A stretch of DNA of 64,000 nt, from assembly GCA_963764625.1 (NCBI GenBank), contig CAVXTH010000006.1:736001-800000 (forward strand), read 5' to 3'. The notes beneath the pieces are model-generated. The model had not been told where the DNA came from. It made no database searches and saw only the letters and a program-made list of their open reading frames with translations. Each line of letters begins with the position of its first letter. Positions within the stretch are counted from its first letter, which is position 1. This DNA is from Candidatus Krumholzibacteriota bacterium (GTDB taxonomy: Bacteria; Krumholzibacteriota; Krumholzibacteriia; JAJRXK01). The translations under genes and the position numbers were made by a program. This document shows positions 1,557 through 20,920 of the stretch, in pieces.

Positions 1557-1572
1557 AGGCACACTAGTTGCA
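1557..1572 (+). promoter_or_regulatory. Sigma54 (-24/-12) promoter
   Basis: AGGCACACTAGTTGCA has exact GG-N10-GC spacing and is close to the TGGCACG-N4-TTGCW consensus; it lies about 40 nt upstream of the diguanylate cyclase ATG at 1613. Confidence 0.75.
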
Positions 1573-1612
1573 TGGCCCGGGGGCAGCTACCCCAGAGGGA
1601 ATCGGGAAATCC

Positions 1613-2665
1613 ATGGAGAGTTACGACAGTACCCGCTGGGAGCGCCTCTTCGAGGCGATATACGAGCTTTCCGGCTTGATCAGTGCCGGGCCCCACCGGG
1701 AAGAGCAGATTCTGGAAAGGATTCTGCGCAGCGCGATGTCGTTGCTGGATGCCCGTTTCGTACACCTTCTCCTGGTGGAAAATGAACGGATCCGCCGCCT
1801 GGTCCTCTCCCGCGACGAGGGGGGGCGAGAGGTGCTCAGCGCCCAATTGCTCTCGCGCAGCACGAACCTGGTCAAGTGGATCCAGCAGGAACAGGCGGAA
1901 GCTCTGCTTCAGCCGCCGGAACTCCTGTTCGAGGGGATCGGAAGCGTCCAGGAATCCATCGCGAACGGACCACCGATGTCGTCCCCGCTGTTCACCGGGG
2001 GCAAGACCCGCGGGATCCTCATGGTCTTCCCGCAGGAGTCTTCGTTCTCTCCCGAAGATGCCAAGCTGCTGGGATTTCTGGCCAACCAGGCCTCCGTCGT
2101 GCTAGAGCTCTCGCGCCTCTATCAGCGTCTTCAGAACGAGGCCAGCACCGACGGATTGACCGGCCTGTACAACTACCGCTATTTCATGGATGCCCTGCAT
2201 CGCGAAGTCAAACGGGCGAGTCGCTTCGAGGAGCCCTTCGCCGTGGTGATGGTTGATGTCGACAACCTCAAGCAATACAATGATGCCAACGGTCATCTGG
2301 CTGGGAGCTCCGCTCTGCGCGAGATGGGATCCCTCTTGAAAACGGACGCACGGGAAATCGACATCATCGCGAAGTATGGCGGCGACGAGTTCAGCTTGAT
2401 CCTTCCCAACACCCATGCGGAGGGATCGATCGTGTTCACCGAACGCATGCTTTGCCGGGTTTCTTCGCACTGTTTCCAGGATGATCCCAAGCGCCGCTTG
2501 ACGATCAGCGCGGGCGTCGCGATGTATCCCGAAGACGGGCAGAACGCGCGAGAGCTTCTGAGCCGGGCGGATGACCGGCTCTATCTGGCCAAGTCGGAGG
2601 GTCGCGACCGCATCGGTTACCCTCTTCCACCCTCAGCGATCAGCGCTTCCACGCCCGAGGATTGA
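1613..2665 (+). CDS. GAF-GGDEF diguanylate cyclase
   Basis: TDGLTGLYN, DVDNLKQYNDANGHLAG, intact GGDEF with RxxD I-site (REID-x5-GGDEF); N-terminal GAF (FSPEDAKLLGFLANQAS). Confidence 0.93.
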   Translation: MESYDSTRWERLFEAIYELSGLISAGPHREEQILERILRSAMSLLDARFVHLLLVENERIRRLVLSRDEGGREVLSAQLLSRSTNLVKWIQQEQAEALLQPPELLFEGIGSVQESIANGPPMSSPLFTGGKTRGILMVFPQESSFSPEDAKLLGFLANQASVVLELSRLYQRLQNEASTDGLTGLYNYRYFMDALHREVKRASRFEEPFAVVMVDVDNLKQYNDANGHLAGSSALREMGSLLKTDAREIDIIAKYGGDEFSLILPNTHAEGSIVFTERMLCRVSSHCFQDDPKRRLTISAGVAMYPEDGQNARELLSRADDRLYLAKSEGRDRIGYPLPPSAISASTPED

Positions 2666-2667
2666 TC

Positions 2668-17432: not shown

Positions 17433-17447
17433 GGGCACGATCCTTGA
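17433..17447 (+). promoter_or_regulatory. Possible sigma54-like promoter for the kinase/regulator pair
   Basis: GGGCACGATCCTTGA has a good -24 box and correct spacing, but GA instead of GC at -12; about 40 nt before ATG 17489. Confidence 0.35.
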
Positions 17448-17488
17448 TGGACCATGACGTGAACTCCTGGGGGAGTGCTGCGAGCGTC

Positions 17489-19526
17489 ATGATCCACCGC
17501 CTGTTCATCTTGTCCTATTTCCTTTTGCCCGCTGTCGCGTTCTCTCTGCGCGGGCGAGATCTCGGACTTTGCCGTCCTCGGCCTCTGTTGGGGCGTGGCC
17601 GCGGTCCTCTTTTTCTTCCACCGTCGGCATCTGCTCGCGAACTGCGCCCCGGCGCCGGCGGACTCCCACGATGCGACGCGGGGCCACGGATTCCTCGATC
17701 TCTATCGCGGCCTCGGCACGGACTACTCCCGCCTGAAGCAGGGCTACGAGGACGCTCGCCTCCGTCTGGTGAACACCAACATTCAGCTCTTGAGCGTGCG
17801 CGAGTTGTGGCAGGCTCTCGCGCGACCGGGGCGACTGGAACACACGGTGGACGGCGCCTTGGTCTACTGTCATCGCGCCAGCGGGTTTCAAGAGGTCATG
17901 ATCCTGCGCATCGAACGCCGGTCGCGCGAACTGGTGGGCCGGTGGCTTCATCCCGGCACCAACGGATCGGTGGTCGAAACCATGCGCTGGGCCCTCGGCG
18001 GTCTCGGTGGTACCGTCGCGCGGGCGATGCGCAATCCCAGCAGCCTCCTGGTGGAGGAGAGCCACGCCGAGTCGTTGTTGACGGTGAACGGGGAGTGCCC
18101 GGCCGGCTTTCAGGATCACGGAGCACATCTGGTGGTTCCGCTGCTGACCCCTCTTCCGCGTCACGAGTGCCTCAAGGGCGGATGGCTCTACCACGACGAC
18201 TGTCCGGTGTTCGAGCTGGCTCCTTCCGAACAAATCCGTGAGAGCTTTCCCTCCACTGAGAGAGCGCTCGATCTCACTCCGTGCATCTCCTGTCGTCACT
18301 ATCCACTGTACGGCTTGATGGTGGTGACCGATCGGGCGCGTCCGGCGGGAATTCGCAAGGCGGATCAGCTGACTCTGGAATCGCTGAGCTACGCGGTGAG
18401 CGCGGTCCTGCAGAACGCGAGTCTCTACCACGAACTCGAAATGGGGGAGAGCTTCCGCGACCAAATCCTCGACGGGATGAGCAACGGCCTCATCACCACC
18501 GACGACCGCGGCCGCGTGATCTTTAGCAATCGCCGCGCGCAGGAACTGCTTTCGACTTCGGGGCGAACACTTGCGGGAAAGAAACTCGACTCGCTCCTGT
18601 GGGGCTTCCCGGCGGAATCTCCCGCCAAGGCCGCGCTCTTGGGAGGACAGCCGAATCTGCGCTGGGAAGGACGCATGGGCCTTGAAGAAGAGAAGTCCAT
18701 TCCCGTGCTCCTGACCCTGGCGAAATACCGCCGTGAGGAAGGCGGATTGGTTGGCGTTATCGCGGTGATCGAGGATCTCAGCGCAGTGCACCTGATGCAG
18801 GAGGAGATCCGGCATCTCGACACCCTCGCCGCCATCGGCCGTTTCGCCAGCAGCATGGCGCACGAGATTCGCAACCCCCTGGGTGGTATCAGCGCCGGGA
18901 TGGACTATCTCGCCCGCAAGGGCACGTTCTCCCTGGATGAGGCCGAGAGCGTCGCCGTCATCCAGGAGGAAATCCAGCGCCTGGACGGCATCATTCGCAA
19001 TCTCTTCCAGGTGGCGCGACCTGCGCGTCTGCAGAAGCAAGAGACGCCGCCACTGGAAACCGCGCTGAGAATTCACCGCAGCATCAAGGACTTGGCCGAG
19101 GAGCGGAGAGTGGAGATTCGCGTCGAATGCGCGGACACGCTGCCCAGCTACCACATCGATCGGGATCAGATCCACCAGGTTCTCTTCAACCTGCTCAAGA
19201 ACGCGATCGAAGCCAGCGAAGAGGGTAGCACTGTCGTTCTCAAGGTGGAGAAGGCAGCCGGATCCCAACCGAAGCCCGAGCTCGAAGAGGCCATCGTCTT
19301 CGAAGTCATCGATACCGGTCCGGGGATCGAGCACGAGGATCTGGCGCACATCTTCGAACCGTTCTTTTCCAAGAAGGCTGAAGGCACGGGGCTCGGCCTC
19401 TTCGTCTCACACAACATCGTGGAGCGTCACGGCGGAACGCTCCAGGCGTTCAGTCGACCGGGCGAGGGAACCTGTATCCGGGTTCTCTTGCCCCTCGCGC
19501 CCTCAACCATCGGGAGCCACTCATGA
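17489..19526 (+). CDS. GAF-PAS sensor histidine kinase (NtrB-like); apparent +1 frameshift near 17552-17554
   Basis: H-box AHEIRNPL, N-box NLLKNAIEA, DTGPGI, FEPFFS, GTGLGL. The continuous ORF is 17595-19526; removing one G joins it to ATG 17489 and gives a two-TM N-terminus. Confidence 0.88.
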
Positions 19527-20920
19527 AACCGCAGATTCTCATCGTCGATGACCAGGAATCCATTCTCTTCTTCCTGCGCCGAACGCTGGCCGAAGAGGGC
19601 TTCGAGGTCATCAGCGCCGAATCGGGATCCAAAGCACTCAAAATCATCGAGGACACGATCCCCGATCTGGTTCTGCTCGACTTGAAGCTGCCCGATATGA
19701 GCGGCCTGGAAGTGCTCGCGCGAATCCAGAAGCTCTATTCCGAGCTGTGCGTGGTCATGATGACGGCCTTCGGCGAGGTCGAGACAGCCGTCTCGGCCAT
19801 GAAGGCGGGCGCCTTCGACTACGTGAACAAACCGATCAACCTGGAAGAGCTGCTGCTAATTCTCGCGCGGGGACTCGAGTCCGGGAGATTGCAATCCGAG
19901 CTGCATCAACTGCGCTTGCGTAGCGAAATCATCGATCCGCGCAGTGAGATCGTTCCCAGCGTCTCCGCGAACATGCTCGAAGTCTACGATCTCATCCGGC
20001 GCATCGCGGTGGGAGGGAGCACGACCGTGTTGATCGAAGGGGAGAGTGGCACTGGAAAGGATGTGGTGGCGAATCTCATTCACCAGAACTCGCCCCGACG
20101 AGATCACGCCTTCCTGGAGATCAATTGCGCCTCACTGCCCGAGGAGCTCCTCGAGAGCGAACTCTTCGGTCACGAGAAGGGGGCGTTCACCGATGCGATC
20201 AACCAGAAGCGCGGCCTCTTGGAGCTCGCCCATCGCGGGACCCTCTTCCTGGACGAGATCGGGGAGATGAGCCTGACCATCCAGGTGAAGCTCCTGCGCG
20301 TGCTGGAGAAGATGAGCTTCCGGCGGGTCGGGGGCGTCAAGGACATCCAGGTGGACGTGCGGATCGTGTCCGCCACCAACCGAGATCTGATAAGATGCGT
20401 GGAAGCAGGAACTTTCCGCGAGGATCTCTACTATCGCCTCAAGGTGATCCCGCTCCATATTCCCCCACTGCGCGAGCGAAGTGAGGACATCCTCCTGTTG
20501 GCCGAGCACTTTCTGCACACTTATTCCAAGACCTTCCACCGGCGGTTTCAACGACTTTCGCCGGACGCGAAAAAGGTGCTTGTGGGCTATGCCTGGCCGG
20601 GTAACATCCGGGAACTGAAGAACATGATGGAGCGTATCGCGCTCCTGGAGGACGGCGAGGAGCTGCTGGCCTCCCAGGTGCCCATCACCGCCGGGGCGCG
20701 AACGGACGAGGGTTCGCTGCTGGAGCGGATCGAGGAGGTCATCAAGGGAGCGATTCCCGAGGCGGGGATTCCCTACGAGGACCTGGTGGAGGACCTGGAG
20801 AGGGCGCTCATCGAGAAGGCGTTTCACAAGGCGGAGGGCAACCAGAGTCTCACCGCCAAGTACCTGAACATCAACCGGGACAAGCTCCGCTACCGGATGA
20901 AGACTTTCGAGTTGCTCTGA
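19523..20920 (+). CDS. Sigma54-dependent response regulator (NtrC/AtoC family)
   Basis: REC domain (IVDD, LLDLKLP, KP), GESGTGK, ESELFGHEKGAFTDA, FLDEIGE, FREDLYYRL, WPGNIREL, C-terminal Fis-type HTH. Confidence 0.95.
   Translation: MKPQILIVDDQESILFFLRRTLAEEGFEVISAESGSKALKIIEDTIPDLVLLDLKLPDMSGLEVLARIQKLYSELCVVMMTAFGEVETAVSAMKAGAFDYVNKPINLEELLLILARGLESGRLQSELHQLRLRSEIIDPRSEIVPSVSANMLEVYDLIRRIAVGGSTTVLIEGESGTGKDVVANLIHQNSPRRDHAFLEINCASLPEELLESELFGHEKGAFTDAINQKRGLLELAHRGTLFLDEIGEMSLTIQVKLLRVLEKMSFRRVGGVKDIQVDVRIVSATNRDLIRCVEAGTFREDLYYRLKVIPLHIPPLRERSEDILLLAEHFLHTYSKTFHRRFQRLSPDAKKVLVGYAWPGNIRELKNMMERIALLEDGEELLASQVPITAGARTDEGSLLERIEEVIKGAIPEAGIPYEDLVEDLERALIEKAFHKAEGNQSLTAKYLNINRDKLRYRMKTFELL

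Follow-up and report, generated by a model that had tools for sequence, protein, structure and literature searches.

Gene content of the locus

We have analysed a 64,000-nucleotide stretch (from here on, the window) of a Candidatus Krumholzibacteriota genome (G000; 3.57 Mb in 9 contigs, 96% complete), and in particular the region 1557-20920, which encodes an exosortase, its putative PEP-CTERM substrate (the cargo) and a set of exopolysaccharide genes. Coding frames were picked by the GC content of third codon positions (GC3), and families were assigned with NCBIfam and Pfam models and their curated cut-offs; for several genes, the probable start lies downstream of the start of the longest open reading frame (ORF). 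The initial annotation, made from the sequence alone, had listed 17 genes in one locus of about 19 kb. All of them were found at 1557-20920 by ORF list, NCBIfam and Pfam, and two details had to be corrected: position 1557 begins a sigma-54 element and not a gene, and the flippase-like gene lies on the minus strand. The non-proteobacterial host suspected in that annotation was borne out, the exosortase being 77% identical to that of its closest named relative, from a Candidatus Krumholzibacteria metagenome-assembled genome, and the nearest named locus (79%) being labelled Candidatus Krumholzibacteriota. The features are listed below with bit scores and, where given, the cut-off.

1557..1572, plus strand: sigma-54 type -24/-12 element, AGGCAC-N5-TTGCA (one mismatch to TGGCAC-N5-TTGCW)
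1613..2665, plus strand (longest ORF from 1568): GAF-GGDEF diguanylate cyclase (TIGR00254, 157.1 vs 37.4; PF13185 GAF)
2662..3963, plus strand: nucleotide-sugar 6-dehydrogenase (TIGR03026, 422.3 vs 189.8)
3981..4928, plus strand (ATG at 3981; longest ORF from 3837): TviC-like sugar epimerase of the short-chain dehydrogenase/reductase family (PF01370, 202 bits)
4954..4983, plus strand: sigma-70-like promoter ahead of the cargo gene, TTGACA-18-TAAACT (10/12 matches)
5069..5623, plus strand: PEP-CTERM protein (cargo), 184 aa (TIGR02595, 18.9 vs 16; tail read directly)
5666..6748, plus strand: Wza-type outer-membrane polysaccharide export protein (PF02563, 73.9, and SLBB domains)
6768..8498, plus strand: Wzz/polysaccharide co-polymerase chain-length determinant, the periplasmic half of a split Wzc (PF13807, PF02706; weak)
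8495..9199, plus strand (longest ORF from 8321): bacterial tyrosine (BY) autokinase (TIGR01007, 147.9 vs 108.05)
9181..10266, minus strand: LPG_synthase_TM/UPF0104 flippase-like membrane protein (PF03706, 140.2; TIGR00374, 73.1 vs 43.2)
10255..11184, plus strand: PorV/PorQ-family outer-membrane beta-barrel (NF033709, 91.6 vs 90)
11297..12124, plus strand: exosortase (TIGR02602, 110.4 vs 105.55; PF09721, 158.1 vs 25.7)
12121..12756, plus strand: EpsI (TIGR02914, 75.3 vs 42.8; PF11984, 103)
12753..13595, plus strand: Memb, a 280-aa multi-helix membrane protein, conserved partner with no family match
13592..15097, plus strand: tetratricopeptide-repeat (TPR) lipoprotein (lipobox LCGC; TPR Pfam matches)
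15186..16301, plus strand: PGLGQ protein, DUF5683-like, with a signal peptide and two PGLGQ membrane hairpins (PF18935, 30.1 vs 26.7, weak)
16414..17319, plus strand: priming phosphoglycosyl transferase (PF02397, 196.6)
17595..19526, plus strand (start uncertain): PAS histidine kinase (HisKA, HATPase_c, PAS)
19523..20920, plus strand: NtrC-type sigma-54 response regulator (PF00158, 227.3; receiver domain; HTH_8)

We read this region as an XrtA-like exosortase/PEP-CTERM plus exopolysaccharide locus with a build typical of Candidatus Krumholzibacteriota, and assign to this reading a probability of about 0.8. The system belongs to a kind already known and is not a new one; what is particular to the lineage is its form. 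Its most informative features are the single-cargo design, a four-gene core found phylum-wide, the sigma-54 element before the cyclase gene and the partner genes that survive the loss of the exosortase.

Classification of the exosortase and EpsI

The exosortase is the single match of its kind in the G000 genome. Its Cys169, Arg214 and His235 are invariant across 24 aligned relatives, and a conserved Cys, Arg and His are described for the family in the accessible part of the paper describing it (Haft et al., 2006; PMC1569441). The protein meets the general family cut-off only and falls into no curated Xrt subtype. It missed the cut-offs of XrtA (TIGR03109, 110.1 vs 208), XrtD (TIGR04152, 114.4 vs 400), XrtV (82.8 vs 313) and XrtW (69.2 vs 425), and 15 other listed sortase models also remained under their cut-offs, the generic TIGR04178 signature excepted.

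The XrtA score rises from 110 in the window to 166-188 in other Krumholzibacteriota families and to 208-219 in acidobacterial relatives and one Ignavibacteria-labelled relative. On this gradient, the Krumholzibacteriota exosortases are best placed as a divergent neighbour clade of XrtA, with the family of the window (f1) as its most divergent branch. The initial annotation had proposed a new surface-assembly system; these scores make it instead a divergent offshoot beside XrtA.

A single PEP-CTERM cargo

A genome-wide count of PEP-CTERM proteins, which had been proposed as a check of the initial annotation, returned only one in G000, encoded within the locus (hidden Markov model and regular-expression searches over all ORFs). 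Six weaker matches were read individually and turned out to be internal or spurious. The cargo gene lies four genes upstream of the barrel gene, and its product consists of a signal peptide, a Pro/Ser/Asp-rich part of about 125 residues, the PEP motif, a transmembrane helix and RRR, its C-terminus ending ...TPAPEPATVMLLACGLVIVGAMFHARRRG. The PEP motif, hydrophobic helix and basic cluster at the very end are those of a sorting domain; the protein scores under the Pfam cut-off for this domain (PF07589, 17.8 vs 20.7), and its mature part matches no NCBIfam or Pfam family. The sequence TPATPAPEPA[TG]V is kept in the cargo orthologues of L081, L033 and L082. Across families, the cargo domains vary and the tail retains [AT]PEP[AGS]T. 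A choice-of-anchor N domain, as found in the cargo of G007, was considered and is not what the G000 cargo carries.

Other genomes with an exosortase have a similarly small repertoire, with exactly one PEP-CTERM match each in G007, G022 and G019 and one weak match in G012; in G007, the gene is directly upstream of the exosortase gene. Two further exosortase-bearing genomes (G083, G087) show no detectable match, and thus the tail model is not fully sensitive.

Gene order across the phylum and loss of the exosortase

Used as query against 101 sampled genomes of the phylum, the window exosortase found matches in 44, a number that includes G000. About 20 kb were fetched around each match, which gave a synteny set of 41 loci. 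It is made up of the window and of 40 loci from the 43 other genomes with a match; G059, G072 and G088 were omitted because of their short contigs. Locus parts were labelled by profiles iterated from the window proteins, and the loci with a match numbered 41 for the exosortase and for EpsI, 38 for the TPR lipoprotein, 34 for Memb, 28 for the kinase, 26 for the regulator, 10 for the transferase, 9 for the barrel, 8 for the PGLGQ protein, 4 for the flippase-like protein and for the cargo family, and 2 for the cyclase.

EpsI adjoins the exosortase in all 41 loci, and Memb is encoded directly 3' of EpsI in 34 of them. The order exosortase-EpsI-Memb-TPR holds in every Memb-bearing locus, so that 34 of the 38 TPR matches lie inside this four-gene cassette. 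The kinase and regulator genes follow directly 3' of this core in 23 loci; in family f6 and one f8 genus, their place is taken by the barrel and transferase genes, with the PGLGQ protein in some. In family f1, the barrel gene is upstream of the exosortase gene. Three families have the barrel and the PGLGQ protein, at differing positions. The co-conservation of the extra genes postulated in the initial annotation therefore stood for Memb (34/41) and, in fewer loci, for the barrel and the PGLGQ protein, and it fell for the UPF0104 flippase-like gene (family-f1 loci only, 4/41) and the cyclase, which are confined to f1.

Beyond the phylum, the Memb/TPR cassette was found only in Krumholzibacteriota-looking loci under older labels, with the exception of L091:8711-19204. 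This Ignavibacteria-labelled locus (39% GC) has a PorV-family gene (214.8 bits), an exosortase at the XrtA threshold, a transferase, a PGLGQ-like protein, an fn3 lipoprotein, Memb, a kinase and a regulator, in an order that differs from that of the window; no separate EpsI was labelled in it.

Four genomes keep Memb, TPR, barrel and transferase genes and have zero matches to the exosortase family model: G078 (91% complete, in one contig), G028 (96%), G094 (89%) and G098 (91%). Their loci read Memb-TPR-(PGLGQ protein)-barrel-transferase, continued in G028 by kinase-regulator-LptE, and their barrels are of the f6/f8 type. The genus of G094 and G098 has the exosortase in 4 of 6 sampled genomes. 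No PEP-CTERM match above the cut-off was found in G078, G094 or G098, and that of G028 (16.0 bits, at the cut-off, in a 139-aa frame) was taken as noise. Since the partners are kept in these four genomes, Memb, the TPR lipoprotein, the barrel and the transferase would not depend on the exosortase, and their distribution argues against a tight mechanistic tie to it. From gene content, these proteins are best regarded as partners of a polysaccharide/envelope module, not as obligate exosortase parts. The initial annotation had counted Memb and the barrel among the parts of the exosortase system, which these genomes do not support.

We have also observed that, in the four loci concerned (L072 in G078, L073 in G028, L075 in G094 and L076 in G098), the exosortase and EpsI are cleanly missing upstream of a cassette that is intact in other respects. 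The Memb gene of G094 is abutted by a 728-aa fn3/Big_5 ORF at the place where relatives have exosortase-EpsI.

Conserved partner proteins

Memb has no Pfam or NCBIfam match. Its AlphaFold2 model is of high quality (predicted local distance difference test, pLDDT, 90.5), and a Foldseek search of this model against the PDB gave no match at E<=0.001. The best VIA-align match was CysZ (3tx3_B; Z 10.2, rmsd 4.9 over 197 residues), under the level at which this tool is trusted for helical bundles, and the Atlas matches to DUF7847 and GPDPase_memb are leads only. Near-invariance is limited to a His-x-Pro motif and two more prolines. The Memb profile found 926 representative clusters at E<=0.001, and 617 at 1e-10, among 1.84 billion.

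The lipobox Cys of the TPR lipoprotein is invariant in 17 of 17 relatives. This protein is not PrsT (TIGR02917, 17.1 vs 312.2; 29.2 for a family-f4 relative). A predicted complex of the TPR lipoprotein with the barrel scored 0.00, which counts neither way. The PGLGQ protein keeps its two PG.GQ motifs unchanged in 8 relatives, and our own reading of its N-terminal part, for which there is no model match, suggests a PEGA-like domain.

The PorV-like barrel and the type IX secretion context

The barrel meets the PorV/PorQ family cut-off and misses both equivalogs of type IX secretion systems (T9SS), PorV (NF033710, 31.3 vs 250) and PorQ (NF033711, 50.8 vs 220). Its AlphaFold2 model has a pLDDT of 71, with the N-terminal 39 residues poorly modelled. 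The top two Foldseek matches were the PorV chains 6h3i_F (E 7.6e-11, TMq 0.68) and 8gl6_F, followed by FadL. The predicted structure thus confirms a PorV-type fold, and the identity given to this protein in the initial annotation was upheld.

The barrel is one of 15 PorV-family matches in G000. This genome also carries 78 matches to the T9SS C-terminal domain (CTD), SprA, and a PorU-like gene followed by the second-best PorV match. On this signature, the organism is predicted to run a T9SS, the barrel being one paralogue among many. There is no CTD match inside the window. Five of the PorV-family matches in G000 start at most about 450 bases downstream of a CTD match (C9:1055156-1056431, C9:892821-894085, C9:309389-310595, C9:936731-937995 and C6:504166-505505), one of them being the PorU-like/PorV pair, an arrangement which suggests that pairs of a cargo with its own barrel are common in this genome.

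With the general PorV-family profile, the other 32 phylum loci showed no PorV paralogue within about 10 kb of the exosortase, so that adjacency by chance should be rare. Between close species, the barrel is 84-86% identical and the exosortase 77-80%. A barrel profile built from mixed groups gave at least 302 bits in 16 genomes and then at most 158.6, and with single-group profiles the locus copy was the best in G000 (78.6 vs 72.4 bits). In the barrel tree, the f1 clade (support 100/100) and the f6/f8 clade (100/99) are each well resolved. What can safely be said is that PorV-family barrels recur in loci of this kind in two lineages at least, and perhaps in three. We have also considered a single orthologous subfamily of exosortase-linked barrels and dropped it: the score gap given by the mixed-group profile is partly circular, since that profile contained both groups.

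In families f6 and f8, a 622-629-aa fn3/Big_5 protein with a CTD-like C-terminus is encoded directly upstream of the exosortase slot. The copies located are as follows.

L036:7664-9541: fn3/Big_5 surface protein
L042:7713-9602: fn3/Big_5 surface protein
L045:10377-12245, minus strand: fn3/Big_5 surface protein
L075:13054-15240, minus strand: fn3/Big_5 surface protein, 728 aa as called

The C-terminal domain of this protein, of about 75 aa (...LYLVRVTD..G....GRFLVQ), is a weak FlgD_ig match and looks like a variant T9SS tag. A tblastn search found no homologue of the protein in G000. The L036 barrel carries a SPOR domain.

Sugar-precursor, priming and export genes

The best specific models for the dehydrogenase are the UDP-N-acetylmannosamine (UDP-ManNAc) and TviB dehydrogenases, each under its own cut-off, and the epimerase is likewise under that of TviC (NF011728, 281.1 vs 760). 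The BY-kinase gene has a GTG start at 8495, in overlap with the Wzz stop. Wza, Wzz and the BY-kinase all passed the respective generic models and missed the XrtA-type export set (TIGR03027 for Wza, 115.2 vs 180; TIGR03007, 146.1 vs 278.85; TIGR03018, 141.9 vs 230.65). The priming transferase is slightly under the TIGR03025 cut-off (263.8 vs 295.55). The initial annotation rightly called the exopolysaccharide machinery minimal: NCBIfam and Pfam scans of the locus found no glycosyltransferase, polymerase or Wzx. Matches resembling glycosyltransferase family 4 (GT4) and O-antigen ligase are present in another part of the genome, at C9:745-749 kb.

Family-f1 genomes differ in what they carry between the flippase-like gene and the exosortase gene. 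This slot holds the barrel gene alone in G000 and G052, the barrel gene plus a MurJ/Wzx-like flippase gene in G018 (L033:8131-9600), and two GT4 glycosyltransferase genes with no barrel in G042 (L034:7058-9611).

Regulation

The GGCAC-N5-TTGC core of the sigma-54 element is invariant upstream of the GGDEF orthologues in L081, G018 and G042, with diverging flanks, and the exosortases of the four genomes that share it are down to 48% identical. The window as a whole has 22 sigma-54-like matches where 21.8 are expected by chance, and thus the case for the site at 1557 comes from its position and conservation only. RpoN is encoded in G000. A conserved intergenic element with -24 GG and -12 GC, RpoN and an activator are therefore all present, the set that a predicted sigma-54-dependent operon calls for. 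The cyclase has an intact GGDEF motif and RxxD I-site, and heads the locus in the four family-f1 genomes in which sequence further upstream was fetched and examined (4/4). The parts for cyclic di-GMP (c-di-GMP) and sigma-54 control named in the initial annotation are thus in place, as far as genes and motifs can tell.

The sigma-70-like site ahead of the cargo gene is the best of 2 promoter-like sites in 20 kb, and a TTGACA box is present upstream of the cargo gene in the window, L081, L033 and L082; the totals of sigma-70-like and terminator-like sites are at chance level. The histidine kinase is not PrsK: with TIGR02916 it scores 80.3 vs 300, matching only profile positions 472-679 (the catalytic core), and it is the fourth best kinase in the genome for this model. 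Nor is the regulator PrsR (TIGR02915, 381.1 vs 502.6); it scores higher with AtoC (457.2) and NtrC (427.5), both under their cut-offs. With no Xrt subtype assigned and with kinase, regulator and TPR lipoprotein distinct from PrsK, PrsR and PrsT by model scoring, the locus is built differently from the Prs model, as the initial annotation had it.

Contigs of two salt-marsh RNA libraries, from two studies, fall on the cargo, Wza, kinase, flippase-like and barrel genes, which does not in itself prove transcription. One of these contigs, at the cargo gene, begins at 5012. None falls on 1300-4619 or 11260-19891, a gap that proves nothing.

Upstream of the locus, a 136-aa ORF with no family match (1109-1519, plus strand) stops 38 bases short of the sigma-54 element. 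Three relatives have upstream sequence that aligns with its 3' end, to a degree suggestive of conservation as coding sequence. If the activator has enhancer sites, they would have to fall inside this ORF.

Flanking regions

Outside the locus, the window carries housekeeping genes, among them those for LptE, DNA polymerase III delta subunit, MutS, MutL, ribosomal protein S1 and HslUV. LptE lies 3' of the sigma-54 regulator gene in family f1 (window 20923-22538, plus strand), and likewise in two f8 genomes (L073, L074). The regulator side of the module may thus occupy an old, fixed chromosomal place beside LptE-HolA. Further along, 37203-39494 (minus strand) encodes a 763-aa protein in which GAF is the sole recognised domain, and 43217-44398 (minus strand) a 393-aa protein without family match, adjoining a LapA-domain gene. 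Small shares of the stretch were found in salt-marsh and soil runs; they were not used for habitat claims.

Weighing the alternatives

Several observations tell against reading the region as an XrtA-like exosortase locus of Krumholzibacteriota build. The XrtA, exporter, chain-length and kinase equivalogs, as well as PrsK, PrsR and PrsT, were all missed. The genome profile given in the accessible part of Haft et al. (2006), with more than 2 PEP-CTERM proteins per genome, does not fit G000, which has one. The locus has no glycosyltransferase, polymerase or Wzx of its own, and G078, G028, G094 and G098 keep Memb-TPR-barrel-transferase with no match to the exosortase family model. As to the barrel, the common descent of the f1 barrels with those of f6/f8 was left at a tree support of 44/84, and with single-group profiles the locus barrel is the best match in 4 of 5 other genomes by 4-11 bits only, and not in G012.

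The most serious competitor, although we would bet against it, holds that two modules lie side by side: an envelope/polysaccharide module comprising Memb, the TPR lipoprotein, the PGLGQ protein, the barrel, the transferase, the kinase and the regulator, and an optional add-on of exosortase, EpsI and cargo. The barrel and the TPR lipoprotein would then act on the polymer only, in the way of AlgK-AlgE, PgaA or BcsC, and would never touch the PEP-CTERM protein. The four genomes with Memb-TPR-(PGLGQ)-barrel-transferase and no exosortase match speak for this proposal, and so does the recent and clean loss of the exosortase in G094 and G098, within a genus where four of six genomes have it. Moreover, G029 bears the two halves on separate contigs, and the TPR and barrel ORFs, as called in L036 (family f6), have 4 bases in common. 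However, 34 of 41 loci, from 7 of the 8 exosortase-bearing sampled families, have Memb and TPR immediately after exosortase-EpsI, and 23 of those loci have no nearby barrel or transferase. The window also has its own Wza/Wzc route, a second polymer gate not being obviously required.

It is unlikely that we are dealing with a merely fast-evolving XrtA system, functionally no different from the others. The top-scoring subtype models do include XrtA, along with XrtD and XrtW; XrtA scores climb gradually, from 110 in f1 through 166-188 to relatives passing 208; and an adjacent EpsI, polysaccharide genes, a TPR lipoprotein, a kinase and a sigma-54 regulator are as in the accessible part of Haft et al. 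(2006). Yet every XrtA-system equivalog cut-off tested was missed, the kinase has only the catalytic core in common with PrsK, there is a single cargo, and the phylum-wide partner Memb has no counterpart in the XrtA model set.

Even less probable is that the barrel is a T9SS accessory, that is, a PorQ/PorV-like anchor for a CTD-tagged protein whose place by the exosortase is a leftover, since the full T9SS signature of G000, the five PorV-family matches close downstream of CTD matches, the CTD-like fn3/Big_5 protein directly upstream of the exosortase in f6/f8 and the SPOR domain of the L036 barrel are set against a window without CTD match, a genome without homologue of that CTD-like protein by tblastn, a barrel about as conserved as its neighbours (84-86% vs 77-80% for the exosortase) and PorV and PorQ equivalog cut-offs that were widely missed (31.3 vs 250; 50.8 vs 220).

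Proposed mode of action and significance

Within the preferred reading of a lineage-specific, XrtA-like exosortase and exopolysaccharide locus, the system could work as follows. The kinase would phosphorylate the activator, and the sigma-54 promoter that heads the locus would fire, giving more cyclase and more sugar-precursor enzymes, whose product is probably an N-acetyl-hexosaminuronic acid. The c-di-GMP would act on a receptor. The priming transferase would put a sugar on polyprenyl phosphate, to be extended by glycosyltransferases and a polymerase encoded elsewhere, and the polymer would be exported by Wzc and Wza. The cargo would cross by Sec and be held through its C-terminal helix until the exosortase cuts it after the PEP motif and hands it to an acceptor in the coat. 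The TPR lipoprotein and the PorV-like barrel may serve the outer-membrane step of the polymer or of the coat, a step for which the exosortase would not be needed.

A bolder and rather improbable proposal is that the CysZ-like Memb, the TPR lipoprotein, the PGLGQ protein and the PorV-fold barrel constitute an undescribed trans-envelope attachment route of the Fibrobacterota-Chlorobiota-Bacteroidota (FCB) group. The dehydrogenase, the epimerase, the priming transferase and the flippase-like protein would make a minimal lipid-linked uronic sugar, and this sugar would serve as acceptor for a surface protein, either a PEP-CTERM cargo cut by the exosortase (f1) or a CTD-like cargo (f6/f8). Such a route, if true, would bridge exosortase and type IX systems, and its survival of exosortase loss would be explained.

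To our knowledge, the acceptor of exosortase cargo and its crossing of the outer membrane are still unsettled about twenty years after the system was predicted. The phylum offers a stripped-down case, with a single enzyme, a single small cargo, four core genes in fixed order and natural variants in which the exosortase is lost and the rest kept, and thus the partner genes can be tested by comparison and by heterologous expression. The findings also point to PorV-fold barrels, known from type IX secretion, being recruited into exosortase/polysaccharide loci, and would extend sigma-54 and c-di-GMP control of such loci beyond Proteobacteria. In the library searched, we found no paper joining Krumholzibacteriota with exosortase or with type IX secretion, and the papers there that join exosortase and PorV seem to concern other matters.

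Comparison with known systems

The reference is the XrtA/PEP-CTERM/EpsH-EpsI system with PrsK-PrsR-PrsT control (Haft et al., 2006; PMC1569441). As far as its accessible text goes, the window shares with it the exosortase Cys/Arg/His triad, the adjacent EpsI, the PEP-CTERM tail, the Wza/Wzc/priming-transferase surroundings, a TPR lipoprotein, a histidine kinase and a sigma-54 regulator nearby, and a sigma-54 promoter in the locus. Unlike that system, the window misses the curated cut-offs (XrtA 110/208, PrsR 381/503, PrsK 80/300, PrsT 17/312), and, set beside the same text, it has one cargo instead of many, and a sigma-54 element placed before the cyclase/sugar operon while the cargo gene has a sigma-70-like promoter. 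It also carries the extra conserved Memb, PGLGQ protein and PorV-like barrel, and belongs to Krumholzibacteriota, not to Proteobacteria.

XrtD (VPLPA-CTERM, TIGR04152) is the best subtype both for the exosortase (114 bits, N-terminal half) and for EpsI (73 bits, C-terminal half). In contrast to XrtD, where these halves are fused, there are two separate genes here, the cut-off of 400 is far off, and the tail reads PAPEPA, not VPLPA.

With the PorV/PorQ proteins of the T9SS (6h3i chain F, 8gl6 chain F), the barrel has in common the family cut-off (91.6 vs 90), PorV chains as best folds and a host with a T9SS; it differs from them in missing the equivalogs (31 vs 250; 51 vs 220), in having no CTD cargo alongside and in lying in an exosortase/polysaccharide locus.

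Polysaccharide gates made of a TPR scaffold and a beta-barrel are represented by AlgK-AlgE, PgaA and BcsC. The window resembles them in encoding a TPR lipoprotein and a barrel together in a polysaccharide locus, with weak PgaA and BcsC matches. Unlike them, it has a PorV/FadL-type fold and not an AlgE or BcsC porin, no synthase, and a Wza/Wzc route.

In activated-sludge Betaproteobacteria, PEP-CTERM floc genes are RpoN-dependent, according to the accessible part of the report (PMC9850573). The likeness to what is described there is that a PEP-CTERM protein and exopolysaccharide genes are tied to sigma-54 control; the difference is that there, going by the title, the PEP-CTERM gene itself is RpoN-dependent, whereas the sigma-54 element of the window stands before the cyclase. 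Nothing is overturned by these comparisons, and the locus stands as a lineage-specific build of a known system.

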